Shown here piece after piece: positions 667 to 29,948 of a stretch of 30,486 nt of DNA. Origin of the DNA: Deltaproteobacteria bacterium (GTDB lineage: Bacteria > Desulfobacterota > B13-G15 > RBG-16-54-18); assembly GCA_003646745.1 (NCBI GenBank), contig QMLM01000001.1, positions 1 to 30,486 on the forward strand. The letters run 5' to 3'. Made by a program: the position numbers and the translations under genes. Within the stretch, counting starts at the first letter, position 1, and the number at the start of each line of letters is the position of its first letter. The notes below the pieces were generated by a model that worked only from the letters and a program-made list of their open reading frames with translations, was not told the origin of the DNA and searched no databases.

Positions 667-711
667 CTCTTCCTCCTTTTTAAAAGACCTCAATATAATT
701 TCAAGAACAAC

Positions 712-1218: not shown

Positions 1219-1249
1219 AGCTTCCCTCCTCTGATCAATGTATCTAAAC

Positions 1250-1825: not shown

Positions 1826-1830
1826 AAAAA

Positions 1831-4689: not shown

Positions 4690-4699
4690 CTATGCATAC

Positions 4700-6633: not shown

Positions 6634-8214
6634 TTACTCCTTTATCAACAATTTAACCTTCGACCCCTTCACTCCTTTGACCAAAAATCCGCCTCCCTCC
6701 GGGGCCGTCACCGCAGCCTCATACCTAGCTTTGACGTCATAGAGGAAGTGTTGTACCGAGAGGTCCATCTTCTTAAAGAAGAACTTCGGGAAGATTCCCA
6801 TCCAGAAGATCATGATGATGATGGGTACCAAGGTCACAATCTCCCGGAAGTTGAGATCCTTGAGTCCTCGATTTTCCGGGTGTTTGATATCCCCAAACAT
6901 CACCCGTTGAAACATCCAAAGCATATAGGCCGCCGCCAAAATCACCCCTGTGGCCCCGAAGACCCCGTATACCGGGTTGGCCTTAAAGGTCCCCAAAAGG
7001 ATCAGAAATTCCCCCACAAAGCCGTTGGTCCCAGGCAGGGCGATGGAGGACAGCGCCACGATCATGAAGAAAGTAGCAAATATCGGCATCACCCGCGAGA
7101 GCCCGCCGAAATCGGCGATCAGCCTGGTATGTCTCCTCTCATAGATCATCCCCACGATCAAAAACAGTGCCCCCGTGCTCACCCCATGGTTGAGCATCTG
7201 ATAGATGCTCCCCTGTACCCCTTGCACGTTAAAGGCGAACATCCCCAGCATGACAAAGCCGAGGTGACTTACACTGGAAAAGGCCACCAATTTCTTAAGG
7301 TCATCTTGCATCATGGAGACCAGGGCTCCGTAGATGATCCCGATAAGTGCCAAGACCGATATCACAGGGATGGCCTTGAAGGCAGCGGCGGGGAATAAGG
7401 GAATAGCAAAACGTATGAAACCGTAAGTCCCCAGCTTCAGCAGAATTCCAGCCAGGATTACGGAGCCGGCGGTGGGGGCTTCCACATGGGCATCGGGCAA
7501 CCATGTGTGGAAGGGGAACATAGGTACCTTGATGGCAAAGGCTAGGGCAAAGGCAGCAAACATTATGTATTGCGTCTTTATGGGGAGGCTCACCTGATAG
7601 AGCTTAAGAAGGTCAAAAGTATAAACACCGGTGGCCTTCCCGTGGAGGAAGTAAAGGGCGATGATGGCCACCAACATCAACACACTCCCCGCCATAGTAT
7701 AAAGGAAGAACTTTATGGCGGCATAAATCCTCCTCGGTCCTCCCCAGACCCCGATGATGAGGTACATGGGGATCAACATGACCTCCCAGAATATATAGAA
7801 GAGAATGAGATCCAGGGCGACAAAGGCCCCGATCATACCGGTCTCCAGAAAGAGGAAGGATATCATGTATTCCTTTACACTCTTCTCGACCGCCCTCCAG
7901 GAGCTAAGGATACACAGCACGGTTAGGAAAGTGGTCAATAGAATCAACAGTAGGCTTATCCCATCAACCCCCATGTAATAGGTGACCCCCCATTCCTTAA
8001 TCCATGGGACTTTTTCCACAAACTGCATCCCGGCCTTACCCTCATCAAAATAAATAAAGAGGGGAAGAGAGATGACAAACTCGACCAGCGAGATGATGAG
8101 GGTCACCCACTTGAGGAGTTCTTCCCTCTCCCTGGGGACAAACAATAGCAGTATCGCCCCTGCAAGGGGCAGGAAGGTAATTGTTGTCAAAATGGGAAAA
8201 CCCAATTGGTTCAT
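6634..8214 (-). CDS. nuoM: NADH-quinone oxidoreductase subunit M
   Basis: [41 protein letters not shown] and GFVGEF motifs. Confidence 0.95.
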
Positions 8215-8224: not shown

Positions 8225-10195
8225 TCACTTTATCAAGAATATGATGACCACCACTGCGCCCAACAGTATCCCTAGTGCATAACCCTGCACGTAGCCAGTC
8301 TGGATCTTGCGCAGGACCCTCCCCCACCAGAGCATGAGTCCCGCTACCAAATTTACACTTCGATCCACCACCCCATCGTCGAACTCCCGCCAGAAGAAGG
8401 TTCCTATCTTCTTGGCGCTGCTGACGAAACATGCCTCATATATCTCATCGACATAATATTTATTGAAGACGATAGTATAAAGGGTCCTAAATCTTTGGGC
8501 CAGCCTCTTCGGGACATCAGGCTTCAGAATGTAGAGGTATAGAGCAATGCTGATCCCGATCAGGGCGATGACCACAGAGACCACCATCAGGATGATCTCC
8601 CAGTTAACACTTCCTATCTCCTCCACTGCACCGGCGGCATAGGCAGACTTAATTAGGGATAAGGAGGCATGCCCAGCTCCCTCTGGAAGCCCTCCCAATA
8701 CAGGAGCGAGAAACTCATGAAAGTAATTCCTCCCTCCTAGGACATGGGGTATACCCACATAGCCGCCGATCACCGAAAGGACAGCCAAGATGATCAGCGG
8801 TACGGTCATAATAGGTGGGGACTCATGGATGTGTTTTTTTACCTCTTCCGAGGCCCGACATTGGCCCAAAAAGGTAACGAAGGTGAGCCGAAACATATAG
8901 AAGGCGGTCATCCCTGCCGCAACAGCCCCCACCAACCAGAGAAAGAGATGGCCATGAGGGCTGCTGAAGGCCTGCCAGAGAATCTCATCCTTGCTGAAAA
9001 ACCCCGAAAACCCGGGGATCCCCGCAATGGCCAAAGTGGCCATCAAGAAGGTCCAAAAGGTAATGGGGGTCTTCTTCCACAATCCCCCCATCTTTCTCAT
9101 ATCCAATTCCCCGCTGAGGGCGTGCATCACACTGCCCGCCCCCAAAAACAGAAGGCCCTTGAAGAAGGCATGGGTCATGAGGTGAAAAATCCCCGCGCTG
9201 AAGGCCCCTACCCCCACGGCAAGAAACATATACCCCAGCTGACTAATGGTAGAATATGCAAGAACCCGCTTTATGTCGAATTGCAAAATGCCCATAGAGG
9301 CGGCATAGATGGCCGTGGCAGCGCCGAAAATGGCTACCACCGCCATAGAGACCGGAGCCATGCTGTAAATGACGTGACAGCGAGCGATCATATACACTCC
9401 CGAGGTGACCATGGTGGCAGCATGGATTAAGGAGCTAACGGGGGTGGGACCCTCCATGGCATCGGGTAGCCATACATAGAGAGGGATCTGGGCGGACTTG
9501 CCGGTGGCCCCTACGAAGAGCAACAAGGTGATCATGGTCACAGTCACTGGATCGAGGAGATGGGCCTTGGCGAATACCTCGTTGAACTCCAAGGTGCCAA
9601 GGTGGGCAAAGATCAAAAACATCCCCAGCAAGAAGCCGAAGTCCCCTACCCTGTTGACTACAAAGGCCTTCTTGCCCGCATTGGCGGGGGCATCCCTCTC
9701 AAACCAAAAGCCGATCAACAAATAAGAACAAAGCCCTACCCCCTCCCAACCGACAAACATCAACAGGAAGTTGTTGGCCAAAACAAGGGTGAGCATCATG
9801 AAGACAAAGAGGTTGAGATAGGCAAAATACCTGGTAAATCCTGGATCATCGTGCATATAGCCCACAGAGTAGATATGGATGAAAAAGCTCACCCCGCTGA
9901 CCACCATGGCCATAACGATTGATAGAGGATCGATCTTGTAGCCAATTACCGTTTTGAGCCCTCCGGAGACTATCCAATCGAACAGGACTTTATCGGGTAC
10001 GGCGGCTCGGGCATCAGGGGGGAGTTTCAGCAGGCTGAAAAAGACCAAGATGGAGAAGAAGAAAGAAAGCCCCAGTACTGAACACGCCACCCAACTGACC
10101 ACCCTCTTGTCGAGGTTATACCACCTCCCAATCAGACCGTTGAAGAGAAATCCCACGGCAGGCAATAGAGGTATCAACCAAACATATTCGATCAT
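8225..10195 (-). CDS. nuoL: NADH-quinone oxidoreductase subunit L
   Basis: [49 protein letters not shown] and FSKDEIL motifs; long C-terminal region. Confidence 0.95.
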
Positions 10196-10214: not shown

Positions 10215-10526
10215 TCACCATTTTAATAGATTTATCTCATCCACCTTTATAGTCCCCCGCCCCCGGTAAAGGAGGACGAAGATGGCTAAGCCCACCGCCG
10301 CCTCAGCCGCCGCCACTGTCATCACAAAAAAGACCATCAAGACCCCATCTAGGGAATCTAAATAGTGGGAGGCGGTGATCAGACTGAGGTTGACGGCACT
10401 GAGCATCATCTCAATACACATAAAGATGACGATGGCATCTCTTCTGATCAGAACTCCTACCGCCCCAATAGCAAAGATTAGGGCACTCACAATCAGGTAA
10501 CAGACTGGTGGCACATTAGGAAGCAT
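10215..10526 (-). CDS. nuoK: NADH-quinone oxidoreductase subunit K
   Basis: [11 protein letters not shown] and [12 protein letters not shown] motifs. Confidence 0.95.
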
Positions 10527-10531: not shown

Positions 10532-11056
10532 CTACCTCTCCTTTTTGCTTAGGATCACTGCTCCAATGATCCCCACCAACAACAGGATGGAGGCCACCTC
10601 AAAGGGGAAGAGGAAGCGGGTAAATAACAGACTCGCCACCGCCTTGATATCGCCCATCTGGGCAATCTTTTCCGGTGTGAACTCCCCCTTTACCCCCGGC
10701 AATACCCTCAGGGCAATCCCATAGACAAGCTCAGCAAAAAGAATTAAGGCCACTACTAGCCCTATTACCTTAGCAGGGGAAAGACGGACCTTATAAGTCC
10801 TCCTCTCCTCCTCCACACTCAACAACATGATGACGAAGATGACCAACATCATGATGGCCCCAGCATAAATCATCACCTGGATGATGGCGATGAACTGGGA
10901 GTTAAGAAGCAAATAGAGGACAGCAATACAAAGAAAATTAAGCACCAAAAACAAAGCCGAGTGGATCGGATTGCGGCGAGTAATTACCATCACCGCAGCA
11001 AATATAGCAGTAAGAGCGGTCAAAATAAAGACGATCCAATGAAAGAGGCTCCCCAT
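10532..11056 (-). CDS. nuoJ: NADH-quinone oxidoreductase subunit J
   Basis: [21 protein letters not shown] and [17 protein letters not shown] motifs. Confidence 0.95.
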
Positions 11057-11062: not shown

Positions 11063-11476
11063 CTACCCCTCCTTCGGTGCGTTGGCCAAAAGCCTCTCTT
11101 TGTCTAAGACGAAGTCTTCTCGACGGTAATCCACAAACTCATAGTTTTTGCCCAATTTGATGGCATTTACCGGACAGGCCTCGGCGCAGAACCCGCAGAA
11201 AATACACCTCGTGACATTTATCTCATAGGTCTCGGGGTACCTTTCCCCTGACTCCAACTCTACGGCTACCAGATGGATGCAATTAGAGGGACACACTGCC
11301 ACACAGAGTCCACATGCCACACAACGGGTATCACCTTTTTCATTTCGCTCGAAAAAATGTACTCCCCTCCACCTAGGGGCCACCTCCCGCTTCTGCTCAG
11401 GATACTGGATGGTCACCGGGCGGGAGAAGAACCTCTTTAGGGTAAGCCTCAATCCTCTCAACAGTGGGACGATCAT
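11063..11476 (-). CDS. nuoI: NADH-quinone oxidoreductase subunit I
   Basis: TIQYPE, CVACGLCVAVCP and CIFCGFCAEACP (2x[4Fe-4S]); position after nuoH. Confidence 0.95.
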   Translation of the reverse strand: MIVPLLRGLRLTLKRFFSRPVTIQYPEQKREVAPRWRGVHFFERNEKGDTRCVACGLCVAVCPSNCIHLVAVELESGERYPETYEINVTRCIFCGFCAEACPVNAIKLGKNYEFVDYRREDFVLDKERLLANAPKEG

Positions 11477-11491: not shown

Positions 11492-12487
11492 TTAAAGGAC
11501 CATGATCAAGCCGGTAAAAAATATATTGGCCAAGGTTAAAGGCAAAAGGACCTTCCAACCGAGCTTCATGATCTGGTCATACCTCAACCTAGGGAAAGTC
11601 CCCCTTTCCCAGATACAGAAGTATACAAGTACACCGGTCTTTATCACGAACCAGATCCAGGAAAGTGAAGGGGGTAAGAAAGGACCATGCCATCCCCCAA
11701 GAAATAGCGTAGTGGCAATAGCACATACCGCCACCAAATGGGCGTATTCCGCCATGAAGAAGAGGGAGAACTTCATGCTGCTGTACTCGATGTTAAAACC
11801 ACAGGCCAGCTCTGCCTCCGCCTCAGGCATATCAAAGGGAGTCCGGTTGATCTCAGCAATGGCGCAGACCAGATAAAAGATAAAGGCGAAGGGTTGATAG
11901 AGGACATTCCAATGCCCTCCAGCCTGCCTTTGAACGATCTCCCCTAAATTGAGGGTCCCCGAGATCATCAACACCCCGATCACCGAAAGGCCCAAGGCCA
12001 ACTCATAACTTATCATCTGGGCTGCCGCTCTCAGGGCCCCGATCACCCCATATTTGTTATAACCCGACCAGCCACCAAGCACAACGCCATACTCCCCTAA
12101 GGAAGCAATACCGAAGACATAAAGTAGACCGATATCTAGGTCGGCTATGGTAAGGGAGACAGTCCTGCCAAAGATCTCAATCTTATCCCCAAAGGGGATC
12201 ACGGCAAAGAGGCACAGCGCCGCCACAATACTGATCATGGGGGCGATGATAAAAATGGTTTTATCCGCCTTAGCCGGAACCACTTCTTCTTTAAAGAAGG
12301 CCTTGATCCCATCGGCGATGGGCTGAAGGAGACCAAAAGGCCCCACCCTATTGGGCCCATATCTTACCTGGATATGACCCAACACCTTTCTCTCCACAAG
12401 GGTAAGATAGGCCACCGTACCCATTAGGACGGCAAAGACCACCACCACCTTCACCACGGCCTCAATCAGAAAATAGACTAGCTCCAT
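11492..12487 (-). CDS. nuoH: NADH-quinone oxidoreductase subunit H
   Basis: ERKVLGHIQVRYGPNRVGPFGLLQPIADGIK, AAQMISYE, NRTPFDMPEAEAEL and FPRLRYDQ motifs. Confidence 0.95.
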   Translation of the reverse strand: MELVYFLIEAVVKVVVVFAVLMGTVAYLTLVERKVLGHIQVRYGPNRVGPFGLLQPIADGIKAFFKEEVVPAKADKTIFIIAPMISIVAALCLFAVIPFGDKIEIFGRTVSLTIADLDIGLLYVFGIASLGEYGVVLGGWSGYNKYGVIGALRAAAQMISYELALGLSVIGVLMISGTLNLGEIVQRQAGGHWNVLYQPFAFIFYLVCAIAEINRTPFDMPEAEAELACGFNIEYSSMKFSLFFMAEYAHLVAVCAIATTLFLGGWHGPFLPPSLSWIWFVIKTGVLVYFCIWERGTFPRLRYDQIMKLGWKVLLPLTLANIFFTGLIMVL

Positions 12488-12497: not shown

Positions 12498-15062
12498 TCA
12501 AACCTTCTCTAACCTGGCGGGAATCCTCCCGTAAGCTGGTACTAAAGAAACAGCATCCAATTGCGGACCCACTAGTTGGGAGGCATCCACTTCATAAAAG
12601 GGGAGATAAAGGGAAAGAACACCCTTCCTCATCCCCTCGGATCTCCTTATCTCTACCTGCACCTCACCCCAGGGGGTGGTAACCTTCACCTTGTCTCCAT
12701 CCCCAATACCCATCTCCTCGGCCTGCTCGGCGCTCATCTCTAAATAAGGATAGGAGAAGACCTTTGCCAACCCCTGAGCCCTCCTCTGGGGGCCAGAGCC
12801 TGTGAGGTGATTATAAAATATGCCCTCTACGGAAAGTAAAAAGGGATAGCCCTCCTCTTGCCCCTCCTGGGTGGGTCCTACAGGGCTAAAGACCGCCTTT
12901 TCCAAAAGATTATCCCTACCCCCACCCCGCAATTGGGTATCTGAGGCCTCAAATTCCAGCCCTCCATAGAGGGGATTGACACCTCTGATCTCCTCAAAGG
13001 TCCCTGCTGGAGACTCAGCCTTCATCTCCTTGCCCATGAAGGCCGCCAGATCCGATAAAACCTCACCTTCCCACCTCAGACCATCTGGGGGCTCCAAGGC
13101 CTTGCGCAACCTCTGAACCCTTCCCTCACAATTGGTATATGTACCGTCCAACTCAGCAAAGGATAGGGCCGGTAGGACCACATGGGCCTGCTCGGCCGTC
13201 TCTGAAAAGAACATATCCTGAACTACCAACAGCTCCAGGGCCTTTAGCCCCTCTTCTACGAGAGACCTGGGAAGGGTAATCAGGGGGTTTTCCCCCAAGA
13301 TAAACAAGGCCTTTAATTCCCCCTTGGAAGCTGCCTGAAACATCTCCACTGCCGAAAGCCCCCTTCCATTTCCTGGACGATACCCCGAAAGGAGCAGGGG
13401 AGTTGCCCCCATCTCCACGGCACCTACCATATTGGCCTGAGGTCCGACAAAGTGAAAACCCCCTCCACCGGTAAGGGCCCCGGCAAGAAGCGCCAAGTTG
13501 ACCAACCCCTTCACCTGATCTACCCCGTATGGCTGCTGCCCGAAAGGAGGAGAACAGATAAAGGCGGGCCTTTTCGCCTTGGCAAGGTGCTGTGCCGCCT
13601 CTGTAAGCAGCTCCTGAGAGACGCCAATTAGCTCCTCTACATGCTCAGGCGTAAACTTCTTGGCGGCCTCCTTGAGGGCATCCAAGCCTTCTACTGCCTC
13701 CACCCCCACTGCCCAGGCCTCTGGACCTTTCTCCAATAGGAGGTGGATCAATCCATTTGCCCAGACCAACTCGTCCCCGGGTCGTAGGCAGAACCAACAA
13801 TCTGCCTCTTCGGCCAATCTGACCCGTCTGGGGTGAACCAGTATGAGGTGCGCCCCTTTTCTCCAGAGGGCCTCCCTGACCCGATTGGCGGCGATGAGAT
13901 TATCCCTGTCCAAATCCCCTCCCACTACCACTATACAGTCGGCATCGGCAACATCATCCAAAGTGCTTGGCAGATAATCCCTGCCCAAAACCTCTTTTAT
14001 GGCCAGCCGGTACGGTTCCAGACATAGCCTACCAGTAGTATCTACATTATTGGTCCCCACCACCTCCCTCATGAATTTCTGAAAGAGGTAGACTTCCTCA
14101 TTAGTGCAGCGCGGGGATATCAACCCCCCAACTGTCCCAGGGCCGCTGCTCAAGATGACTTTGTTGATCATCGCTGCAACATAAGAGAGGGCCTCCTCCC
14201 ACGGTACCTCCTTCCAGTTCCCCGCCCCCTTAATCATGGGCCTGGTAATCCTTTCCGTACCATGGAGGAAGTCATATCCAAATCTCCCCCTTACACAGAG
14301 GCTCCCCCTGTTAGCCCCCTTATCGTCCTGGCTCGTCACCCCTATTACCCGGTTCTCGAAGATATTCAGCTCGAGCTGGCAGCCCAGGGAACAGTAGTTG
14401 CAAGTGGTGAGAACCTTTTGTTGTTGCCAGGGGCGTGCCTTGATCCTGCTGACCCTCTCGGTCAAAGCCCCTACAGGGCAGACCCTGAGACATTCCCCAC
14501 AGGAGATACAGGCCGCAGGGTCCCTTATCCCCACCTCCGCCTCATATCCCTTTCCCACCAGCTCTATAGCCCACGCTCTAGCGATCTCGTGGTCGGCCCT
14601 GATGCAACGCAAACACATAACGCAACGGTCCGCCCACTGCCTGATCAGGGGAGTGGCAAACTCCCTCATTCCCTTAGAGGACCTGGTGGCCTGATACTCC
14701 TGCTGATCTATACCGAACTCGAACACCAAATTTTGCAGTTCACATGCACCAGCCGCATCACATTGAGGACAGTCTAAAGGGTGATTAAGCAAAATGAGTT
14801 TGAGGGCATCACGGCGAATGCGCTCCAGCCTCTCCGTCTGGGTGCGAACCACTATTCCATCCTGCACATAGGTAGTACAAGCGGTCATGGGCCTCTCCGC
14901 ACCTTCTATCTCCACCACACAGAGGCGACAAGAACCGATGGGGATCAACCGAGGATGATAGCAGAGGGTAGGTATATAGATCCCGTTCTCCCGCGCCACC
15001 TCCAGGATGGTTTTGTCTGACTCAGCCGTGATCTGCTTGCCATCTATGGTCAATCTAACCAT
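12498..15062 (-). CDS. NuoG/formate-dehydrogenase-alpha-like Fe-S protein resembling Geobacter SfrA (NADPH oxidoreductase alpha subunit)
   Basis: [2Fe-2S] (PTLC..GSCRLC..C), HPLDCPQCDAAGAC, CVMCLRCIRADHEI/CISCGECLRVCP and CNYCSLGC..C motifs, then a degenerate molybdopterin-oxidoreductase body. Start moved to ATG 15062 (GGAGGAG upstream). SfrA similarity is from recall, not a search. Confidence 0.75.
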   Translation of the reverse strand: MVRLTIDGKQITAESDKTILEVARENGIYIPTLCYHPRLIPIGSCRLCVVEIEGAERPMTACTTYVQDGIVVRTQTERLERIRRDALKLILLNHPLDCPQCDAAGACELQNLVFEFGIDQQEYQATRSSKGMREFATPLIRQWADRCVMCLRCIRADHEIARAWAIELVGKGYEAEVGIRDPAACISCGECLRVCPVGALTERVSRIKARPWQQQKVLTTCNYCSLGCQLELNIFENRVIGVTSQDDKGANRGSLCVRGRFGYDFLHGTERITRPMIKGAGNWKEVPWEEALSYVAAMINKVILSSGPGTVGGLISPRCTNEEVYLFQKFMREVVGTNNVDTTGRLCLEPYRLAIKEVLGRDYLPSTLDDVADADCIVVVGGDLDRDNLIAANRVREALWRKGAHLILVHPRRVRLAEEADCWFCLRPGDELVWANGLIHLLLEKGPEAWAVGVEAVEGLDALKEAAKKFTPEHVEELIGVSQELLTEAAQHLAKAKRPAFICSPPFGQQPYGVDQVKGLVNLALLAGALTGGGGFHFVGPQANMVGAVEMGATPLLLSGYRPGNGRGLSAVEMFQAASKGELKALFILGENPLITLPRSLVEEGLKALELLVVQDMFFSETAEQAHVVLPALSFAELDGTYTNCEGRVQRLRKALEPPDGLRWEGEVLSDLAAFMGKEMKAESPAGTFEEIRGVNPLYGGLEFEASDTQLRGGGRDNLLEKAVFSPVGPTQEGQEEGYPFLLSVEGIFYNHLTGSGPQRRAQGLAKVFSYPYLEMSAEQAEEMGIGDGDKVKVTTPWGEVQVEIRRSEGMRKGVLSLYLPFYEVDASQLVGPQLDAVSLVPAYGRIPARLEKV

Positions 15063-15078
15063 CGCTCCTCCCATCTTA

Positions 15079-17034
15079 CTACCCTATGGCCACCATACCG
15101 ACGCGATAACAACGCAGGCAGCGAGCAGCTTCCCGCATGGCCGTATCGACGGGAAAACCTTCCTCCACCTCCTCAAAGCTCCACTTCCTGGTGTCTGCAG
15201 GGAGGGCCTTGAGCTGTTCCCTCTTCCTGCCCGGGATGATCCCAATATGCTCCTCAGGGTCGTAGACCCCTATCTCACCCATCAACTTCTCCAGCCGCTC
15301 GTCATCGCTAGCCTCTACTTTCTCACCCCTTAGGTAAAGGTCTATCATCTCTGCAGCCAATCGACCACTACCCGCCGCCCTTACCAGGACATCAGGGCCG
15401 GTGACGCAATCTCCTGCGGAAAAGATCTCGGGTTGTGAGGTCTCCATAGTCTCATTATTTACCACCACGGTAGACCATTTGGTGGCCTGCACTCCATCCT
15501 TTTCATCCAAAAAGGATAAATCAACACGTTGGCCAATGGCCGGGATTAATATATCCGTGTCAACGACAAACTCTGAGCCCTTGATGGGAACCGGTCTACG
15601 CCTGCCCGATTCGTCCGGCTCCCCCAGTTCCATCCTAATACACTCTACCCCCACTACCTTTCCCTCCTTAGCGATAATCTTAGTGGGAGCACAGAGATAC
15701 TCAAACTTCACCCCTTCTTCTTCAGCAGCATGTATCTCCTCTTCATCGGCGGGCATCTCTCGACGGGTACGACGATAAAAGAGGTTAACGTCCTTCTTCC
15801 CTATCCGGAAGGAGCTGCGCACACAATCTATGGCAACATTACCCCCCCCTACTACCACTACCCTATCCCCATCTGGATAGGGATCTTTCCCCTTATTTAT
15901 GCTAAAAAGGTATTGTACCCCGGGAATAAAACCCTTATATCCTGCATCTTCCCCCTCCACACGCATAGGGGTGGATCCTTGGGCCCCCACCCCAATAAAG
16001 ATGGCGTCGTACTCCTTTTTCATATCGCTGATGCTTATGTCTTTTCCTACTTCGGTATTATATCTGATTTCTACCCCCAAGGAGGTGATGATATCCACCT
16101 CCCGGCGCAGGATGTGACGGGGCAGTCGGTAGTCGGGGATACCTACCGCGGCCATCCCTCCTGGTTCATCCAGCCTTTCAAAGATGGTGATCGGATAACC
16201 CTTAAGGGCTAAGTAATAGGCACAAGTAAGACCGGCTGGGCCTGCTCCAATGACCGCCACCTTTTTGTCCTTTCTGTCCTGAGGGGTGGGGATAAGGGGC
16301 TTTCTCTTTTTCTCTATCTCATAATCGGCCACAAACCTCTTTAGGTGCCTGATGTCGAGGGCCTCATCTACATTGAGCCTGCGGCAGTTGGACTCACAGG
16401 GACGAATGCATACCCTCCCTAAGGTACCTGGCAGACAGGTTCTCTCCCTGATAACCCGAAGGGAGTCGGCGAAATCTCCCTCTGCTATACACTCAATATA
16501 AGTGGGGATGTTCAAATGAGCAGGGCAGGCATTCATACAGGGGGCGGTGAGTTTAACCTTATAATTTCCTCGCGGAACCTTCTTCTTGCCCCTGATCACC
16601 TCCTCAAACTCCTCGCGAAAATACTTCAAGGCCATCAGGAGGGGGAAGGGACCAGTCTGGCCTAGATTGCACTTGGAACCCTCTAAAATGGAGTGCCCCA
16701 AAGACTCCATCAACTCCAGATCCTCCATTCTCCCCTCACCCTGCGTGATCCTGTCCAAGGTCTCGGCGATCACCTTGGTGCCAACCCTGCAGGGGAAACA
16801 TTTCCCGCAGGACTCCTTCTGTACCGCCTCCATATATGCCCGGCACATATCGACAATGCTGACATCTGTGTCGCGCACGGCAAAACCGTTCCAACCCATG
16901 AAGGCCTTTATTCGAACGCCCGGTTTGAATTCAGCGGGCAATTTTAGCCTCTCCGGCTCGGCATATTCCTGCGGGGCCTTCCCCCTGTTATCGGTCAGTT
17001 TTCCTCCCCAATAGCTAAAAACTACATCTGCCAT
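15079..17034 (-). CDS. GltD-like FAD/NAD(P)H oxidoreductase with N-terminal NuoF-type [4Fe-4S] domain, resembling Geobacter SfrB
   Basis: ESCGKCFPCRVG..C (NuoF N3-like), APCMNACP/GRVCIRPCESNCRR (GltD Fe-S), GAGPAG (FAD), GGGNVAIDC with YRRTRREMPA (NADPH-type basic motif), C-terminal EAARCLRC. N-terminus VVFSYWG..DNR..AFMGW resembles SfrB as recalled. Start at ATG 17034. Confidence 0.8.
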   Translation of the reverse strand: MADVVFSYWGGKLTDNRGKAPQEYAEPERLKLPAEFKPGVRIKAFMGWNGFAVRDTDVSIVDMCRAYMEAVQKESCGKCFPCRVGTKVIAETLDRITQGEGRMEDLELMESLGHSILEGSKCNLGQTGPFPLLMALKYFREEFEEVIRGKKKVPRGNYKVKLTAPCMNACPAHLNIPTYIECIAEGDFADSLRVIRERTCLPGTLGRVCIRPCESNCRRLNVDEALDIRHLKRFVADYEIEKKRKPLIPTPQDRKDKKVAVIGAGPAGLTCAYYLALKGYPITIFERLDEPGGMAAVGIPDYRLPRHILRREVDIITSLGVEIRYNTEVGKDISISDMKKEYDAIFIGVGAQGSTPMRVEGEDAGYKGFIPGVQYLFSINKGKDPYPDGDRVVVVGGGNVAIDCVRSSFRIGKKDVNLFYRRTRREMPADEEEIHAAEEEGVKFEYLCAPTKIIAKEGKVVGVECIRMELGEPDESGRRRPVPIKGSEFVVDTDILIPAIGQRVDLSFLDEKDGVQATKWSTVVVNNETMETSQPEIFSAGDCVTGPDVLVRAAGSGRLAAEMIDLYLRGEKVEASDDERLEKLMGEIGVYDPEEHIGIIPGRKREQLKALPADTRKWSFEEVEEGFPVDTAMREAARCLRCYRVGMVAIG

Positions 17035-17127
17035 CGTCACCTCAAATCTATATAACGTATTAAAGTCGCATACAATTCAAACGAAGATTAAATCGCTCTA
17101 CCCTTCGCCACATAATAAAAGGGCTGG

Positions 17128-18819
17128 TCATCGGTCTATCTCCCCCAGGACGATATCAATACTCCCGATGACGGCCACCACATCGGCCACCAGATGCCCT
17201 TTAATCATCTCCGGCAAGGCCGCTAAGTTCACAAAACAAGGGGGTCGAATGCGGTACCGATAAGGGTGATTGCTTCCATCGCTTACCAGATACCAGCCTA
17301 ATTCTCCCTTAGGATTTTCGATACTGGCGTAAACCTCTCCTGGAGGTGGCGATATATCCTCGGACTTGAGCTTGAAGTGACGGATCAGGGCATTGATCTC
17401 CTCCGCTACCAGTTCTTTACTGGGAGGCGTCACCTTGGGGTCATAGTAGTTGACCTCCCCATCAGGGAGCCTGTCTAGGGCCTGATGGATGATTCTGGCA
17501 GACTGCCTCATCTCCTCCAGCCGCACGAGATACCTGTCGTAGACATCTCCCTTCTCGCCGATGGGGATCTCAAAATCAAACTCCTCATAACTAGAATAAG
17601 GAAAGACCTTGCGAATGTCCCACCTGACCCCTGACCCCCTCAGCACTGGACCTGTAAGCCCCCAGTTGATGGCCTCATCCGCCGTGATGACCCCCACATC
17701 TTTGGTCCTCTTCAACCAGATGATGTTCTCAGTAAGCAGCGTCTCATATTCGTGAATGCGTCGGGGAAAATCCTCTAGGAAGGCCCTGATCCTCCCCTCA
17801 ATGCCATCGGGCAAGTCAGCGGCCAGTCCCCCTATGCGCAAAAAGCTGGGGGTGAGCCTGGCACCGGTGACGTGTTCCAGGATGTCAAGGACTGTCTCCC
17901 TTTCCCGGAAGGTGTAAAAGAGCACGGTCATGGCCCCCATGTCCAGGGCATGGGTGGCTAGCCAAAGCAGGTGCGCTGCGATCCTTTGCAGTTCGGCCAG
18001 CATCACCCTAATGTACTGGGCCCTCTTGGGCACCTCTATTCCGAGGAGTTTCTCCACGGCCAGAATATAGGCCAAGTTATTAGATATCCCGGCGGTATAG
18101 TCTAAACGGTCGGTGAGGGTAACAGCTTGTGTATAGGTCATGTTCTCAGCCAATTTCTCCACGCCTCTATGGAGGTGGCCGATGTAGGGGATGGCATCAA
18201 CGATTACCTCCCCATCTAGCTTCAACACCAAACGCAACACCCCATGGGTGGCCGGGTGCTGGGGCCCCATATTTAAGATCATATACCTTTGCCCCTCACC
18301 CGTATCTGGGAACTTCGGTATGACATCGGGGGGCTCTGCCGGCACCTCGTAATGCTCGAAGTCCTCCCCCCGCAACGGAAAGTCCTTCCTCAGGGGATGG
18401 CCCTGGTAACCCTCCCAAGTCAAGATACGGCGCAAATCACTGTGTCCCTCAAAGGGGACCCCTAACATATCGTAAACCTCCCGCTCTAACCAATTGGCCG
18501 CCTTCCAGATCGACTCCACCGTAGAGAGCGCCTCGCCCTCACTTACCGAGGCCTTGATCCTCAACCTCTTATTCCGCCTCATGGAATAGAGGTGGTACAC
18601 TACCTCGAACCTCTCCTCCCTCTGGGGATAATCGACGCCACATATATCGGTGAGGAAATCAAAGGCGAGATCGGGGTCATCACGGAGGAACTTACAGATG
18701 GGGAGGATATCTTCTCGCTTTACCTTAATGGTCATTTCACCCTGAAAGGAGTAGGTCTCCAAGATGGAGTCGGGGAATTGCTCCTTCAGCCTCTTATGGG
18801 CGACCTCCACATCCCACAT
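17128..18819 (-). CDS. nuoCD: Fused NADH-quinone oxidoreductase subunit C/D
   Basis: NuoC part (EREVYDMLG..GHPLRKDFP) fused to NuoD part (NMGPQHPATHGVLRL, DRLDY, SIDIVLGEIDR). No NiFe CxxC motifs. Confidence 0.95.
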   Translation of the reverse strand: MWDVEVAHKRLKEQFPDSILETYSFQGEMTIKVKREDILPICKFLRDDPDLAFDFLTDICGVDYPQREERFEVVYHLYSMRRNKRLRIKASVSEGEALSTVESIWKAANWLEREVYDMLGVPFEGHSDLRRILTWEGYQGHPLRKDFPLRGEDFEHYEVPAEPPDVIPKFPDTGEGQRYMILNMGPQHPATHGVLRLVLKLDGEVIVDAIPYIGHLHRGVEKLAENMTYTQAVTLTDRLDYTAGISNNLAYILAVEKLLGIEVPKRAQYIRVMLAELQRIAAHLLWLATHALDMGAMTVLFYTFRERETVLDILEHVTGARLTPSFLRIGGLAADLPDGIEGRIRAFLEDFPRRIHEYETLLTENIIWLKRTKDVGVITADEAINWGLTGPVLRGSGVRWDIRKVFPYSSYEEFDFEIPIGEKGDVYDRYLVRLEEMRQSARIIHQALDRLPDGEVNYYDPKVTPPSKELVAEEINALIRHFKLKSEDISPPPGEVYASIENPKGELGWYLVSDGSNHPYRYRIRPPCFVNLAALPEMIKGHLVADVVAVIGSIDIVLGEIDR

Positions 18820-18831
18820 ATAATCCCTCTC

Positions 18832-19347
18832 TTATCGAATCTCTTCTGGTTGGAGGGGACGAATCTCATCCTTCCTGTCCAGAAGGCTCTCACCCATGAT
18901 CTTATTCTGCAATTTTATCAAGGCCGTCAAGAGGGCCTCAGGTCTGGGGGGGCAACCTGGCACATAGACATCCACTGGGATGATCTGATCCACCCCTTGC
19001 ACCACATTATAGGTTTGAAATATTCCACCTGAAGAGGCGCAGGCCCCATAAGCGATCACCCATTTAGGCTCAGGCATCTGCTCGTAAATCCTCTTAACCA
19101 TGGGGGCCATCTTTTTGGTAACCGTGCCCGCCACGATCATAAGGTCTGCCTGTCTGGGGGAGGGGCGAAATACCTCAGCGCCAAATCTAGCAATGTCATA
19201 GGCCGCCGAACTGGTGACCATCATCTCCAGGGCGCATCAAGCCAGCCCAAAGGTCACCGGCCAAAGGGAGTTCTTTCGCGCCCAATTGACCAATTTGCTG
19301 AGAGAGGTCGTGATGATGTTATCCCCTAACTTGACCTCTATTCCCAT
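18832..19347 (-). CDS. nuoB: NADH-quinone oxidoreductase subunit B with in-frame TGA at codon 37 (19237-19239); candidate selenoprotein, 171 aa
   Basis: Manual extension upstream of the 130-aa track ORF gives [46 protein letters not shown]..., followed by [16 protein letters not shown] and PGCPPRPEA. The start ATG 19347 overlaps the end of nuoA. Confidence 0.9.
19204..19239 (-). promoter_or_regulatory. Putative bacterial SECIS hairpin directly after the nuoB UGA
   Basis: mRNA UGA-UG-CGCC-CUGG-AGA-UGA-[UGG]-UCA-CCAG-UUC-GGCG folds by hand into CGCC/GGCG, CUGG/CCAG and UGA/UCA stems, with a G-containing apical loop 16 nt after the UGA. Not computed. Confidence 0.6.
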
Positions 19348-19694
19348 TCCAGCGCTCCTTTCCTCCATACATATATAAAACCCAATAATAGAATAAAAAT
19401 GAAAATCATCATCTCCACAAAGCCAAATATCCCTAACTCCCTAAAGACCACCGCCCAAGGGTACAAAAAGACCACCTCTAGGTCAAAGACCAAAAAGAGC
19501 ATGGCGATGATGTAATACTTTATCGGAATGGCCTGATGGGTGGGGCCTAAAGAGATCATCCCACACTCATAGGGAGCAGCTTTTACCGGATGGACCCTCT
19601 TAGGCCCCAACAGATGGGAGAGGAAGACGACAAAGACGGCAAAAAATATAGACAAGGCCAATAAAAACAGAACAGGCACATACTTAATGAGCAT
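19338..19694 (-). CDS. nuoA: NADH-quinone oxidoreductase subunit A
   Basis: [28 protein letters not shown] and WRKGALEWE motifs. Confidence 0.95.
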
Positions 19695-19739
19695 CAGATC
19701 TCCCCCCCTTAAGTTATGACCTGGGCTTGACGCCTAGAT

Positions 19740-19768
19740 CTATTACAACATCGATCTAAATTTGTCAA
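19740..19768 (-). promoter_or_regulatory. Candidate sigma70 promoter of the nuo block
   Basis: Minus-strand TTGACA (19768-19763) followed after 17 nt by a weak -10 (TAATAG). Confidence 0.35.
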
Positions 19769-19937
19769 GGGGAAAATCGTAGTTTTGTGAAAATAGTAGC
19801 TATCTAAATTGACCTCCAAAAACTCCTCTAATAGTGCTATCTTTTGCCTTAAAATCTTTTGTCTATAGTGGTTGAGAGGTCGAAATTCAAGTTAGACTAA
19901 AGATTCTTTTTGAGATAAAATAGGCCATCAATCAGCT

Positions 19938-20918
19938 ATGTTAGATATGTTAGACACGATGTATCTTGGTGTTGATGTAGGTTCCATCACCACTAAAGTG
20001 GTGGCCATTGATGAGGCGGACCAGATCAGGGCCAAGGTCTATCTGCGTAACATCGGCAGGCCCCTAGAGGCGATAAAGAAAGGGCTCCGTATGATAAAGG
20101 ACCAACTCGGGGACAACCTGGAGGTTCAAGGGATAGGGACTACGGGGAGCGCCCGCCACCTAGCGGCTTACCTCTTGGGGGCAGATGTGGTGAAAAACGA
20201 GATCACCGCCCATGCCGTGGCCGTAGTCGACTTCCTCCCCGAGGTCCAAACCATTATCGAGATCGGCGGACAGGACTCCAAGATCATCATCTTACAGGAG
20301 GGGGTGGTGGTGGACTTTGCCATGAACACGGTATGTGCGGCAGGGACTGGCTCCTTTTTGGATCAACAGGCCGCCCGGTTGGGGATATCTGTGGAAGAAT
20401 TCGGTCAGTTGGCCCTAAAGGCGACAAAAAGGGTGAGGATAGCGGGCAGATGCACAGTCTTTGCCGAGACCGATATGATCCACAAACAGCAGCTGGGCTT
20501 TCAAACTGAGGAGATCATTGCCGGGCTCTGCAGCTCCCTGGTCAAGAACTATCTCAACGACGTGGCCAGAGGAAAAGATCTCCTCCCCCCATTGGTATTT
20601 CAGGGCGGCGTGGCTGCCAATCCGGGCATAAGGAAGGCATTCGAAGAGGAGCTAGGGGTGCCCTTGGTGATCCCTCCCCACTTTGAAGTCATGGGGGCCC
20701 TCGGGGCAGCGAAACTTGCCCGCCGAGCTGGTGTATCCAGTAGCAAGTTTAAAGGATTTGATATAGCTCACAGCGAATGTTTCACCCGCAGTATAGAGTG
20801 TGACGGGTGCGGGAACAATTGTGAGGTGATAGAATTGATAGTGAATGGAGAAACCATCGCCTACTGGGGTGACAGGTGCGGTAAGTTCAGCGAGGCCTTC
20901 CGCTCCAAAGAGGGATGA
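19938..20918 (+). CDS. Acyl-CoA dehydratase activase (BadF/BadG/BcrA/BcrD, HgdC-like [4Fe-4S] ATPase) with Cys-rich C-terminal tail
   Basis: GVDVGSITTK, NEITAH, EIGGQDSK, CAAGTGSFLD, RCTVFAE and GGVAAN motifs; tail CDGCGNNC..GDRC. Start uncertain (19938, 19947 or 19959). Confidence 0.85.
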   Translation: MLDMLDTMYLGVDVGSITTKVVAIDEADQIRAKVYLRNIGRPLEAIKKGLRMIKDQLGDNLEVQGIGTTGSARHLAAYLLGADVVKNEITAHAVAVVDFLPEVQTIIEIGGQDSKIIILQEGVVVDFAMNTVCAAGTGSFLDQQAARLGISVEEFGQLALKATKRVRIAGRCTVFAETDMIHKQQLGFQTEEIIAGLCSSLVKNYLNDVARGKDLLPPLVFQGGVAANPGIRKAFEEELGVPLVIPPHFEVMGALGAAKLARRAGVSSSKFKGFDIAHSECFTRSIECDGCGNNCEVIELIVNGETIAYWGDRCGKFSEAFRSKEG

Positions 20919-22276
20919 GGATTTTACTGACAAACCCGGCCAATGCCGGCATCCTCAGGGCAATAGGAGTTCACTTCCCCCCCATGGTGCTGTGGTATCT
21001 AGGCGCATACCTAGAAAAAGAGGGGTATCAGGTGGAGATAAGGGACTTTTGCGTCCCTGGGAAAAGGCCCAACTACTCTCAATATGATCTAGTGGGCATC
21101 TCCACTGATACCACTCGCCACTTCAAGGCCATGGAGATCGCTCGGAGGGCAAAAGAAGCGGGCTGCACGGTGGTGATGGGAGGACCCCATCCATGTTATA
21201 TAGATGAGGAGATGTTCGCCAGCCGATGGGTGGATTTCATCGTCCATGGGGAGGGAGAGATAACCCTTTTGGAACTGGTCAGGGCCCTGGAAAAGGGGGA
21301 AAAGGATCTAGAAAGGATAAAGGGGATCAGCTTTCAAAGGGATGGTGAGGTGGTGAGAACCCCACCTCGCCCTTTTATCCAAGATCTGGATTCTTTGCCT
21401 TTGCCTGCACGCCACCTGATAGATATGGGTCTCTATCGAAGGACCAGATTTGGCAACCGGGCTATCACCCCTGTGGTAACGAGCAGGGGTTGCCCGGCAA
21501 ATTGCAACTTTTGTTCTTCTTCCAGCTTTTTCGGCAGAAAGTGGAGGGCCAGAAGTCCGGAATCGGTGGTGGAAGAATTGGAAGAACTACAATATAAATA
21601 TGGTTTTAGAGCTGTGGCCTTCGTCGACGACAATTTTACCCTCTCCCCTAAAAGGGTAATGGCCATCTCTGAGGGCATCATCAAAAAAGGGCTGGATATC
21701 TGGTGGTGGAATTTCTCTCGGGCAGAGACCATTGTGAAAAACGAGGAGATGCTGAAGGTGATGAAGAGGGCTGGGGCCAAGACCATCTATATCGGGGTGG
21801 AGAGCGCCAGCCCTCAGACCCTCGTCGAACTCGGAAAGAGGATGGACCTGAATACGGTGGTGAAGGCGGTAGAGGTATTAAAAAAACATGGCTTTGAGAT
21901 ATTCGCCAGCTATATTTTGGGAAGTCCCGGCGATAAAGTGAAGGACATCCATGAGACCATTCGCTTTGCCAAAAGACTGGATACCAATGTGGCCCAGTTC
22001 TCCATCCTCACCCCCTATCCAGGCACCTCCCTTTATGAAGAACTGAAGCACAAGATCTGGACACGACACTGGCCCTTCTATGACTCCCAACACTTGGTAT
22101 ATAGACACGATCACATATCCTTTATCAGGATGGAGTGGCTATTGTTGAAAGCCAATCTCCTCTATTACACACGTTCCCGAAAGGCCTTAAAGGATGTTTG
22201 GCGTGTGGCCAAAAGACATAAACTGGGGTGGGGGACACTTTTGAAGTTTCTCCGAGACTACTTCTGGGGTAAGTGA
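20915..22276 (+). CDS. B12-binding-domain radical SAM protein
   Basis: N-terminal cobalamin-binding domain (LVGIS..VVMGGPHP..GEGE), SRGCPANCNFC (CxxxCxxC), FVDDNF and GVES motifs. ATGA overlap with the activase. Confidence 0.9.
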   Translation: MRILLTNPANAGILRAIGVHFPPMVLWYLGAYLEKEGYQVEIRDFCVPGKRPNYSQYDLVGISTDTTRHFKAMEIARRAKEAGCTVVMGGPHPCYIDEEMFASRWVDFIVHGEGEITLLELVRALEKGEKDLERIKGISFQRDGEVVRTPPRPFIQDLDSLPLPARHLIDMGLYRRTRFGNRAITPVVTSRGCPANCNFCSSSSFFGRKWRARSPESVVEELEELQYKYGFRAVAFVDDNFTLSPKRVMAISEGIIKKGLDIWWWNFSRAETIVKNEEMLKVMKRAGAKTIYIGVESASPQTLVELGKRMDLNTVVKAVEVLKKHGFEIFASYILGSPGDKVKDIHETIRFAKRLDTNVAQFSILTPYPGTSLYEELKHKIWTRHWPFYDSQHLVYRHDHISFIRMEWLLLKANLLYYTRSRKALKDVWRVAKRHKLGWGTLLKFLRDYFWGK

Positions 22277-23178
22277 AGATGCGCTCTGGGGGGCGGCTCA
22301 ACAGATTCTTCTTCCTTTTTTGGTTTTATTTCTTCGCCACCATCATTCCCCGTCCTTTACAGAGGGTTTTCACCATCTCCATAGGCACTCTTTTTTACCT
22401 GCTTATGCCCAAGACCAGGCAAGCGGTGAAGGAAAACCTAAAGGTGATCGGGAGGGGAAGGTGGGGTAAAAAGGAGATAGCCGCCCTTGCCAGAAGTACT
22501 TTCCAAAACTACGGGCAATACCTCCTCGACTATATGGTGATGCATCGTCTAAGCTCCAAGAACAAAGGCAAAACGGTTGAGCGGGAACTGGGACATGAAA
22601 ATATGATTGAAGCCCTGGACAGGGGAAAGGGGGTCATCTGCATCACCCCTCACCTAGGCAACTGGGAACTGGGGGGGTTGTTGCTTGCCTTCAAGGGCTG
22701 TGACCTGTACGTCCTCACCCTTGATGAAGTCGATCCCAAGATCAAGGCCTTCCGGGAGCGGATGAGGGCAGCAAAGGGGATCAAAAACATCTACATAGAC
22801 CCCGAAAACCCAACCCCCTCTGCTATCTTGGAGGTGGTGAGGGTCCTTAAGGAAAATAAGGTAGTGGCTATGTTAGGAGACCGTTCAGGAGGGGCCAACA
22901 CCATTGAATTGGACTTTTTCGGGCGCAGGACCCCTTTCCCCACGGGTGCCGCCACCTTGGCCATGACAACAGGAGCAGCGGTTTTGCCCGTCTTCGTCAT
23001 ACTAAAAGGTGGCAAGTACTGGGGGATCATCGAACGTCCTATTTACTTCCATAGCTCTTCTCAGCAAGGCAAAGAGAGCGAGATCAGGCGGGGGATGGAG
23101 AAGCTGGTAAGGACCTTTGAAAGGTACATCGGGGAGTACCCCGACCAATGGTATAATTTCTTCCCCTATTGGTCCTGA
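22273..23178 (+). CDS. LpxL/HtrB-family (lysophospholipid/lipid A) acyltransferase
   Basis: GKGVICITPHLGNWE, MLGDR, FFGRRTPFP, and C-terminal YPDQWY motifs. GTGA overlap with the radical SAM gene. Confidence 0.85.
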   Translation: MKMRSGGRLNRFFFLFWFYFFATIIPRPLQRVFTISIGTLFYLLMPKTRQAVKENLKVIGRGRWGKKEIAALARSTFQNYGQYLLDYMVMHRLSSKNKGKTVERELGHENMIEALDRGKGVICITPHLGNWELGGLLLAFKGCDLYVLTLDEVDPKIKAFRERMRAAKGIKNIYIDPENPTPSAILEVVRVLKENKVVAMLGDRSGGANTIELDFFGRRTPFPTGAATLAMTTGAAVLPVFVILKGGKYWGIIERPIYFHSSSQQGKESEIRRGMEKLVRTFERYIGEYPDQWYNFFPYWS

Positions 23179-23199
23179 GATCTCACCATCAAAGACATA

Positions 23200-23228
23200 T
23201 TGATTTTAAAAAAATTATGGCCTAAAAT
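23200..23228 (+). promoter_or_regulatory. Candidate sigma70 promoter for the UPF0104 gene
   Basis: TTGATT-17 nt-TAAAAT in an AT-rich gap. Confidence 0.5.
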
Positions 23229-23317
23229 GAATGGCTCTTTGAGCTATCTGTTGGCCTCTTAATACCTTAAGGTTCCAATGTAAGAATTAAAGCGGCTTTT
23301 GACGGCAAATAGCGGTC

Positions 23318-24413: not shown

Positions 24414-24591
24414 TATAAAGTTTTACAAAAATTTCATACAAAAGAAGGGCCCGAGGAAATTCTATGAGCGCAGGATAGCTAAGAACAAAAGAAATAGATA
24501 ATTTAAGAAGGGGATTTCCGCGGGCTGCGGCGAAGGAGAATATTTTTGCCCTTTTTAAAAGGGTTTTCTTTTATGGTCTGGGAGGTTGCTG

Positions 24592-24963: not shown

Positions 24964-24977
24964 AATGGGAGATTAAG

Positions 24978-25448: not shown

Positions 25449-25463
25449 GGAGGACTTCAAAGA

Positions 25464-28777: not shown

Positions 28778-28789
28778 AAGGCAAAAGAG

Positions 28790-28939: not shown

Positions 28940-28992
28940 ACTCAGGGACTTTACAAAGGAAGGTCTCTCTGCCTTCTAATCTAAATAACTGT

Positions 28993-29935: not shown

Positions 29936-29948
29936 TGACGGAGGCATT

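Follow-up and report, generated by a model that had tools for sequence, protein, structure and literature searches.

The deltaproteobacterial contig QMLM01000001.1 carries a respiratory complex I (nuo) operon in which two genes, one for a flavoprotein of the SfrB/FdhB type and one for a NuoG/formate dehydrogenase alpha (Fdh-alpha)-like subunit, fill the slot of nuoE, nuoF, and nuoG. The window analyzed here is the entire 30.5-kb contig (30,486 nucleotides), part of a 1.78-Mb metagenome-assembled genome (MAG) that is 86.6% complete. Our favored reading, held with somewhat more confidence than doubt, is that a flavoprotein of the reduced nicotinamide adenine dinucleotide phosphate (NADPH) type, derived from a formate dehydrogenase (FDH), and a dead Fdh-alpha scaffold would form the electron-input module (N-module) of this complex I, making it a proton-pumping NADPH:menaquinone oxidoreductase or an enzyme working in reverse. 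Assembly of the complex, NADPH specificity, direction, and pumping are what we infer from the genes and their relatives.

We favor this reading because the two genes occupy the exact nuoE-F-G slot with gaps of 4–87 nucleotides (nt); because the layout is conserved (51 of 401 genomes, 15 families, and the window's own family); because the complex-I-associated flavoproteins form one clade and the NuoD proteins encoded beside them group together; because all iron-sulfur (Fe-S) ligands of the electron chain are conserved; because the flavoprotein has NADPH-type motifs and NADPH-binding relatives; because the catalytic His and Arg of FDH are absent from the seven in-slot large subunits of this kind; because the residues of the quinone module (Q-module) and of the pumps are intact; and because the only NuoF of the flavin mononucleotide (FMN) type in the assembly lies on a separate contig beside its own NuoE-like gene.

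Organization of the nuo operon

Twelve closely spaced genes run along the minus strand from position 19694 to 5160 (Table 1), in the order nuoA, nuoB, a nuoCD fusion, a gene for a flavoprotein of 653 amino acids (aa), a gene for an 858-aa NuoG/Fdh-alpha-like subunit (hereafter the G-like subunit), and nuoH, I, J, K, L, M, and N. Between nuoA and nuoN, adjacent genes are −10 to 19 nt apart, the single exception being the 87 nt ahead of the flavoprotein gene. No gene for NuoE (PF01257) or for an FMN-type NuoF (PF01512) was found with Pfam between nuoA and nuoN. Both this gene order and the lack of nuoE and of an FMN-binding nuoF between nuoCD and nuoH had been read from the bare sequence in an earlier note, and both were correct by Pfam domains and coordinates. 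The end of the flavoprotein gene had been placed there at 17034, which corresponds to an ATG two codons inside the gene; the GTG start gives 17040.

Standing between nuoCD and nuoH, the pair is unlike the free-standing sfrB-sfrA pair. A promoter scan found fewer promoter-like sites than in shuffled sequences, and a terminator scan found none that was convincing between nuoN and the block of genes downstream of it, so co-transcription is not decidable from that scan.

An SfrB/FdhB-type flavoprotein in the NuoEF position

The flavoprotein matched three Pfam domains, NADH_4Fe-4S (PF10589, residues 64–147, E 4.7e-28), Fer4_20 (residues 166–245, E 3.4e-23), and Pyr_redox_2 (residues 259–559, E 8.2e-32), and lacked the Complex1_51K FMN domain. 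Its residues 1–160 correspond to the C-terminal domain of NuoF, with an N3-type [4Fe-4S] cluster site (Cys78/81/84/124), so that the NuoF-derived domain described in the earlier note as borrowed is real. A GltD/DPD-type two-cluster domain follows (residues 166–245), then the Rossmann folds for flavin adenine dinucleotide (FAD) and NADPH (residues 259–559) and a C-terminal extension (residues 575–653) that ends with an invariant CxxC (641/644). The motifs GAGPAG (265–270), GGGNVAID (398–405), and YRRTRR (422–427) are present, and Tyr422, Arg423, and Arg424 were invariant in a 40-sequence alignment. Across 121 sequences, the four N3-type Cys were 100% conserved, and the whole set of ligand Cys, comprising these four, six in the GltD-type cluster domain, and the CxxC, was conserved at 98–100%.

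NCBIfam placed the flavoprotein among models of the "NADPH-dependent glutamate synthase small subunit" type, its nuoF model covering just the first 150 residues. The AlphaFold2 model (mean predicted local distance difference test 92, predicted template modeling score 0.90) had as its top fold matches NfnA (9bov_A, 9n5u_A) and StnC (8oh5_C), followed by NfnL, NfnB, GltD, and DPD, and the matches to NfnA, StnC, NfnB, and GltD had a probability of 1.00. All six are NADPH-binding flavoproteins. The NADPH-type motifs that had been read from the sequence are accompanied by best sequence and fold matches among NfnA/StnC, NfnB, GltD, and DPD.

More than 8000 homologues of the flavoprotein were found, the closest of them in MAGs of Deltaproteobacteria, Thermodesulfobacteriota, Desulfobacterales, and Syntrophaceae, where JGI names them "formate dehydrogenase (NADP+) beta subunit". 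In the flavoprotein tree, the SfrB/FdhB family is a 15-row clade (100/99) with the window's protein inside it, while NuoF::GltD fusions and NfnB/GltD-type proteins fall outside. All eleven complex-I-associated flavoproteins form one clade (100/99), which is sister to the free-standing SfrB-type genes (97/93), with a Geothermobacter SfrB-like gene in basal position. By domain content and phylogeny the flavoprotein is a member of the SfrB/FdhB family, and the kinship with SfrB proposed in the earlier note was borne out.

A G-like subunit on the formate dehydrogenase side of the tree

The N-terminal part of the G-like subunit has the ligands of a complex I electron chain: those of N1b (Cys38/49/52/66), N5 (His98/Cys102/105/111), N4 (Cys151/154/157/199), and an N7-type cluster (Cys225/228/232/260). 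It also has the site of an extra ferredoxin-type cluster (Cys189/192/195) with Asp161 at the fourth position, which suggests an Asp-ligated or a 3Fe cluster. At this fourth position (codon 161, 14592–14594), Asp was found in the window and in loci L003, L005, and L117, and Cys in L008, L111, L112, and all FdhA relatives.

Neither reference model was reached in full, the subunit scoring 447 bits against the Fdh-alpha model TIGR01591 (cut-off 666) and 407 bits against the NuoG model TIGR01973 (cut-off 470). Residues 3–831 align with Rhodobacter capsulatus FdsA (6tg9_A, E about 1e-128), and the match to true NuoG is confined to about 400 N-terminal residues. Where live relatives have a selenocysteine (Sec)-His pair and a catalytic Arg, the G-like subunit has Cys351-Leu352 and Gly544. 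It is one of seven in-slot "dead" subunits that form a single clade in the maximum-likelihood tree (100/99); the position of the Mo ligand is C, N, H, or D among them, and the catalytic His and Arg are always gone. A 100/99 split sets this clade, together with FdhA, apart from canonical NuoG. The G-like subunit keeps the N5 motif HPLDCPxCD; at this place, GDHNCL is found in the soluble Bfu-type FdhA that the same genomes encode.

The G-like subunit is, judged by alignment and phylogeny, probably a catalytically dead descendant of a Sec-containing FdhA rather than of canonical NuoG, so the module would derive from an NADP-dependent FDH. In the earlier note it had been likened to SfrA. The Fdh-alpha/NuoG-like anatomy behind that comparison holds; a specific identity with SfrA does not, given this descent and the grouping of a free SfrA-like gene (L012) with NuoG in the large-subunit tree, in which a second one (L118) groups with Sec-FdhA. 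The FDH catalytic residues are missing from both of these free SfrA-like proteins too, all of them from L012 and some of them from L118.

Q-module and membrane arm

The best solved relative of the NuoCD fusion is Aquifex NuoCD2 (7q5y_B, E 2.7e-165). NuoD, which is single-copy in the assembly, retains His192 and Tyr241, which we take to be the quinone-site His and Tyr by Thermus numbering. Six NuoE/NuoF-carrying complex I operons of the same phylum share 98 invariant charged residues in NuoA, H, J, K, L, M, and N, of which the window retains 93. The earlier note had described both the quinone-site pair and the charged residues of the antiporter subunits as kept, and these residue comparisons agree. 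With the residues of the Q-module and the pumps intact, the rest of the complex looks functional.

Distribution and gene-order series

We surveyed 401 genomes sampled evenly from the phylum and read adjacency to nuoD from coordinates. Adjacency was counted in this way because the FdhAB pairs of family f47, which are free-standing, also passed a threshold of E <= 1e-225. A close homologue of the flavoprotein was present in 70 genomes, and its gene adjoined nuoD in 51 of them, from 15 families, or about one in eight sampled genomes; a close NuoD match (E <= 1e-140) was present in 153, so the number with the adjacency layout is a third of that. Within the window's own family, the pair occurs in 11 of the 12 other genomes, each with one NuoD, and the flavoprotein gene is beside nuoD in all 11. 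The embedding in the nuo operon that the earlier note had pointed out in this one contig is thus conserved. In the NuoD tree, the proteins of all flavoprotein-associated operons group together (89/94, below the threshold for strong support), apart from the canonical type and from the type with E-F upstream.

Gene maps revealed several arrangements of the input genes. The canonical order A-B-CD-E-F-G-H..N was found in G023, G026, and G040, and in G024 and G030 E-F stands ahead of nuoA with G in the slot. Other genomes have A..N followed by the flavoprotein and Sec-FdhA genes (G014, G016), Sec-FdhA ahead of nuoA with the flavoprotein between D and H (G032, also locus L007), or the flavoprotein and Sec-FdhA both in the slot (G031). 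The flavoprotein with a dead subunit in the slot characterizes the window, its family, G013, G015, and G035. In family f47, a flavoprotein 60% identical to that of the window lies beside a live Sec-FdhA, away from nuo, so the nearest free-standing relatives are real FDH pairs.

Some further arrangements were noted in passing. The unusual order nuoE-nuoF-nuoA-B-C/D-nuoG-nuoH... occurs at L113 (G024) and L114 (G030), whose NuoG proteins group in the tree with the Geothermobacter "SfrA-like" gene L012. Two f47 loci, L137 (G103:C79) and L139 (G066:C7), have nuoA-B-C-D, then about 9 kb with no nuoH-N match, then a second GltD-like gene. At L111 (G013:C9), where the slot is already filled, a second, StnC-resembling pair (GltD-like and NuoG-like, 16447–19860) directly follows nuoN. 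Within genus g11, G013 and G016 differ in module layout, and their NuoD proteins are sisters (100/99).

Proposed electron path and competing explanations

In the mechanism that we propose, a single SfrB/FdhB-type flavoprotein would substitute for the NADH-oxidizing head made of NuoE and the FMN-bearing NuoF. A hydride from NADPH would reduce the FAD in the GltD-like domain, from which electrons would travel through the two GltD-type [4Fe-4S] clusters to the N3-type cluster of the NuoF C-terminal domain, which may double as the piece that docks onto the G-like subunit. They would continue along the usual N1b/N4/N5 chain to NuoI, to NuoB (cluster N2, with a putative Sec ligand), and to menaquinone at NuoD/NuoH, and NuoL, M, and N would pump protons. 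The G-like subunit would be wire and scaffold only, its FDH catalysis lost; across the flavoprotein and this subunit, the Fe-S ligands for an unbroken chain are all conserved. The genome carries dsrAB, and in such an organism the electrons of NADPH could enter a menaquinone pool serving sulfate reduction. In the opposite direction, the proton motive force could drive the formation of NADPH. Rnf was not found in the genome, and a MenA-like prenyltransferase gave a weak match only.

Several findings weigh against this mechanism, among them the grounds for an alternative in which the flavoprotein and the dead Fdh-alpha act together as a soluble NADPH oxidoreductase of the SfrAB type, with ferredoxin, for example, or another acceptor, that is only co-transcribed with an 11-subunit, ferredoxin-fed membrane complex. 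The characterized members of the family, SfrAB of Geobacter and the FDH of Moorella, are soluble (as cited in PMC3543383 and PMC13040438). An eleven-subunit complex I lacking NuoG works elsewhere and is widespread among anaerobes (PMC11238625, PMC13040438), which means that pumping does not strictly require the module. Among close relatives, the flavoprotein gene lies after nuoN (G014, G016) or off the nuo operon beside a live Sec-FdhA (f47), so genes of this family need not belong to the operon. The YRR motif does not vary across our GltD superfamily sample and does not by itself exclude the use of NADH, and NuoE-like and NuoF::GltD genes are found downstream on the same strand. Even so, we consider a soluble pair, the strongest of the competing explanations, to be unlikely: the two genes fill the exact nuoEFG slot throughout the 51 genomes and 15 families, the G-like subunit retains a complex-I-type N5 motif that soluble Bfu-type FdhA does not have, the flavoprotein lineage tracks one NuoD lineage, and a soluble pair devoid of FDH catalysis would have no evident second substrate site.

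We find it improbable that the FAD of the GltD/NfnB-like domain bifurcates, sending one electron from NADPH downhill to menaquinone through complex I and the other uphill to ferredoxin, or confurcates in reverse, with menaquinol (aided by the proton motive force) and reduced ferredoxin both contributing to the reduction of NADP+. NfnA/StnC and GltD/DPD are the closest relatives, and in them we take the GltD-like domain to be a plain NADPH entry and its clusters a wire; neither a ferredoxin-binding element nor a sequence mark of a bifurcating FAD was identified in the flavoprotein. On the other side, fold and sequence are close to those of bifurcating NfnB/NfnL (4ylf_B, 5jca_L), the two GltD-type clusters and the additional N3-type one could between them offer two exits, and a similar idea has been published for Suden_1824 of Sulfurimonas (bioRxiv 10.1101/717884). 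Slightly more improbable again is NADH as the donor, whether it entered at the GltD-like site, where the YRR motif does not discriminate, or through a conventional N-module made of NuoE-like/NuoF-type proteins encoded downstream or elsewhere. Candidates for such a module are the NuoE-like gene at 712–1266, downstream of which relatives have a NuoF::GltD fusion, and the NuoE/NuoF-like pair on contig C247. The downstream genes, however, have a live Sec-FdhA of their own behind them and a regulator cassette ahead, their flavoprotein groups with soluble Bfu-type enzymes, and the N-terminal domain of the in-slot flavoprotein is presumably homologous to the NuoG-contacting part of NuoF and would occupy that site. 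A module still acting as an FDH, hence a formate:quinone oxidoreductase, has a negligible probability in our view and is close to refuted by sequence. The large subunit does align end to end with FdsA and has Cys at the Mo-ligand position, and sister lineages do carry a live Sec-FdhA with complex I; yet the catalytic His has become Leu, the catalytic Arg has become Gly, and the Mo-ligand Cys is not conserved in the dead clade. Formate was rejected as a substrate because the active site is dead, the catalytic His and Arg being missing from all seven in-slot dead subunits.

A predicted selenocysteine ligand of cluster N2

Codon 37 of nuoB is an in-frame TGA, which reads FGLA-U-CALEMM and takes the place of the first Cys in the tandem pair at cluster N2. 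The list of open reading frames had given nuoB as 130 aa only; its actual start is at 19347. The earlier note had seen neither this codon nor the NuoE-like gene downstream of nuoN. Among orthologues, the same codon is TGA in 8 distinct sequences and TGC/TGT in 15. All eight TGA-bearing sequences come from flavoprotein-associated operons, and natural Cys orthologues occur within the window's own family.

A hairpin resembling a selenocysteine insertion sequence (SECIS) lies 15–48 nt past the U of the UGA, with a 4-base-pair lower stem, an upper stem GGUCACC/GGCGGCC, and the apical loop AGUUC. All 10 of its pairs form in 7 of the 8 distinct UGA sequences as against 1 of the 15 Cys orthologues (Fisher p 2.5e-4, for sequences that are related and not independent). 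One compensatory change, G-C to C-G, was found in L120, and in most of the UGA-bearing sequences the hairpin shows no change even at synonymous sites. Rfam gave no match for the hairpin, and its fold energy (minimum free energy, 60 nt) was no better than that of shuffles; the case for a SECIS rests on the comparison of UGA- and Cys-bearing orthologues. The genome has the machinery for Sec, with tRNA-Sec on contig C41 and matches above the cut-offs for selB (394 bits), selA (640 bits), and selD (386 bits). NuoB is thus predicted to be a selenoprotein, in which cluster N2 probably has one Sec ligand, and a literature search found no publication on selenocysteine in NuoB. Separately, selD (contig C168:1084–2004) itself has one in-frame TGA, so SelD probably contains Sec.

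The downstream block and neighboring genes

Downstream of nuoN, a co-oriented block reads DRTGG, HATPase, a homologue of HydS-like sensory [FeFe]-hydrogenase, DRTGG, PHP, HATPase, NuoE-like, Trx-like 2Fe-2S, and the N-terminus of a NuoF::GltD fusion at the contig end. In the three family members with the same order (L091–L093), the block runs on into a fusion of a Trx-like domain, a complete NuoF(FMN), and a GltD-like domain of about 1010 aa in all and then into an FdhA with Sec-His and Arg. The downstream-type NuoF::GltD flavoprotein groups with soluble Bfu-type enzymes in the tree. The block probably encodes a separate, regulated, soluble Bfu-type NAD(P)-linked FDH, and, as speculation, this FDH could supply NADPH to complex I.

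The earlier note had named a NuoEF encoded elsewhere as a threat to its proposal. Such genes do sit just downstream, with NuoF in the form of NuoF::GltD in relatives, which leaves that objection some weight on sequence grounds, although they belong to a Sec-FDH module. That the downstream NuoE/NuoF::GltD genes supply the missing N-module seems unlikely to us, since the copies in relatives come with a live Sec-FdhA and regulators of their own. The only FMN-type NuoF domain (PF01512) in the assembly is on contig C247 (L001, 2.2 kb), beside a second NuoE-like gene and a Trx-like gene, and these NuoE/NuoF-like genes are probably another Bfu-type module. No contig continuing the left end of the window was found in the assembly.

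On the plus strand, divergent from nuoA, positions 19938–24388 hold genes for a BcrAD/BadFG-type ATPase, a B12-binding radical SAM protein, a lipid A acyltransferase homologue, and an LPG-synthase-TM protein. The region 24586–30377 contains rpsL, rpsG, fusA, tuf, a tRNA (28993–29066), nusG, and rplK.

Table 1 Coordinates of the nuo operon and of the block downstream of it in the window.
Feature	Position	Strand	Basis or remark
Co-oriented block	3-5056	-	Pfam; same order in family members L091, L092, L093
NuoF::GltD fusion N-terminus, cut by contig end	3-263	-	Order shared with L091-L093
Trx-like 2Fe-2S gene	292-693	-	Pfam
NuoE-like gene	712-1266	-	About 4 kb downstream of nuoN
nuoN	5160-6626	-	Pfam match, full length
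nuoM	6634-8214	-	Pfam match, full length
nuoL	8225-10195	-	Pfam match, full length
nuoK	10215-10526	-	Pfam match, full length
nuoJ	10532-11056	-	Pfam match, full length
nuoI	11063-11476	-	Pfam match, full length
nuoH	11492-12487	-	Pfam match, full length
NuoG/Fdh-alpha-like subunit, 858 aa	12498-15074	-	Pfam, NCBIfam, FdsA alignment, tree
SfrB/FdhB-type flavoprotein, 653 aa	15079-17040	-	Pfam, motifs, tree, AlphaFold2 model
nuoCD fusion (Q-module)	17128-18819	-	PF00329 + PF00346
nuoB	18832-19347	-	171 codons; in-frame TGA codon 37 (19237-19239)
SECIS-like hairpin in nuoB	19192-19225	-	Comparison of UGA- and Cys-bearing orthologues
nuoA	19338-19694	-	PF00507, E 2.9e-38; 10-nt overlap with nuoB start

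Relation to known systems

The building blocks of this operon are known from SfrAB, NADP-dependent FDH, the Nfn/Stn enzymes, and complex I. SfrAB of G. sulfurreducens is a soluble NADPH oxidoreductase (Kaufmann and Lovley 2001 and Coppi et al. 2007, as cited in PMC3543383 and PMC7483475). Like the window's pair, SfrAB has two subunits, a GltD-like Fe-S flavoprotein and an Fdh-alpha/NuoG-like Fe-S subunit, and the free SfrB-type genes of Desulfuromonadales-type genomes (L010, L012, L118) encode proteins 50–51% identical to the window's flavoprotein that form its sister group. SfrAB is free-standing and soluble, whereas the window's pair stands in the nuoEFG slot, and the window's G-like subunit is not orthologous to all SfrA-like genes. 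The FDH of Moorella thermoacetica is NADPH-dependent, and its FdhAB has a beta subunit from sfrB2 and an alpha subunit from sfrA2 and fdhF3 (PMC13040438). It shares with the window the beta-subunit family and an alpha subunit that joins a NuoG-like N-terminus to a Mo/W-bis(pyranopterin guanine dinucleotide) fold, and complex-I-associated relatives of the window still carry alpha subunits with Sec-His and Arg. The alpha subunit of the window differs in lacking the catalytic His and Arg, so that no formate chemistry is predicted for it, and its gene pair lies within the operon of a membrane complex.

Canonical 14-subunit complex I (NuoA–N), as in T. thermophilus, E. coli, and Aquifex, has the same A, B, CD, and H–N with quinone-site and pump residues, a subunit in the G position with N1b, N4, N5, and N7-type ligands, and an N3-type domain. 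In contrast, the window's operon has neither NuoE (N1a) nor the FMN/NADH domain of NuoF and has Rossmann folds of the FAD/NADPH type instead; its G subunit lies on the FdhA side of the tree, and its nuoB has TGA for one N2 cysteine. The GltD-like part and the C-terminal extension have their best matches, in sequence and in fold, in NfnABC/StnABC, transhydrogenases of the Bfu family (9bov, 9n5u, 8oh5), which use the same NuoF-like, GltD-like, and NuoG/Fdh-like blocks. These transhydrogenases are soluble, however, with a NuoE-like and a complete FMN-bearing NuoF-like subunit, and their GltD-like domain is inserted in the NuoG-like chain, whereas that of the window is fused to a C-terminal stub of NuoF.

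The nearest precedent that we found is the non-canonical complex I of Sulfurimonas denitrificans (Campylobacterota), for which a 2019 preprint describes Suden_1824 as a "NuoF replacement" together with two copies of NuoG (bioRxiv 10.1101/717884). The proposal made there likewise puts a candidate NfnB/GltD-like NADPH flavoprotein in the NuoE/F position of a nuo operon. That complex belongs to another phylum, has two NuoG copies where the window has one, and neither an FDH-derived dead G subunit nor a fusion to the NuoF C-terminus is described there. Our literature search returned no description of the FDH-derived layout or of its prevalence in Desulfobacterota.

Significance

The usual view is that complex I is NADH-specific or, when "headless", fed by ferredoxin or F420. 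An NADPH-fed complex I, if confirmed, would alter models of electron flow, energy yield, and NADPH balance in sulfate reducers and syntrophs. More tentatively, and with less confidence than we have in the window's own complex, we suggest that the Desulfobacterota may have a widespread NADPH:menaquinone proton pump whose input comes from an NADP-dependent Sec-FDH that has lost its catalysis and whose cluster N2 is Sec-ligated in many lineages, the window's among them. The gene orders make up a series in which a live Sec-FDH first lies beside nuo, an FDH that is still live then lies inside it, and the FDH inside nuo is finally dead. Such a series lets one follow, as is rarely possible, the steps by which a soluble dehydrogenase may become the N-module of complex I, and it bears on the origin of NuoEFG. 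A Sec ligand on N2, the quinone-reducing cluster linked to coupling, would, if real, be a natural experiment on the tandem cysteines and would give these organisms a quinone-reducing cluster tuned by selenium.

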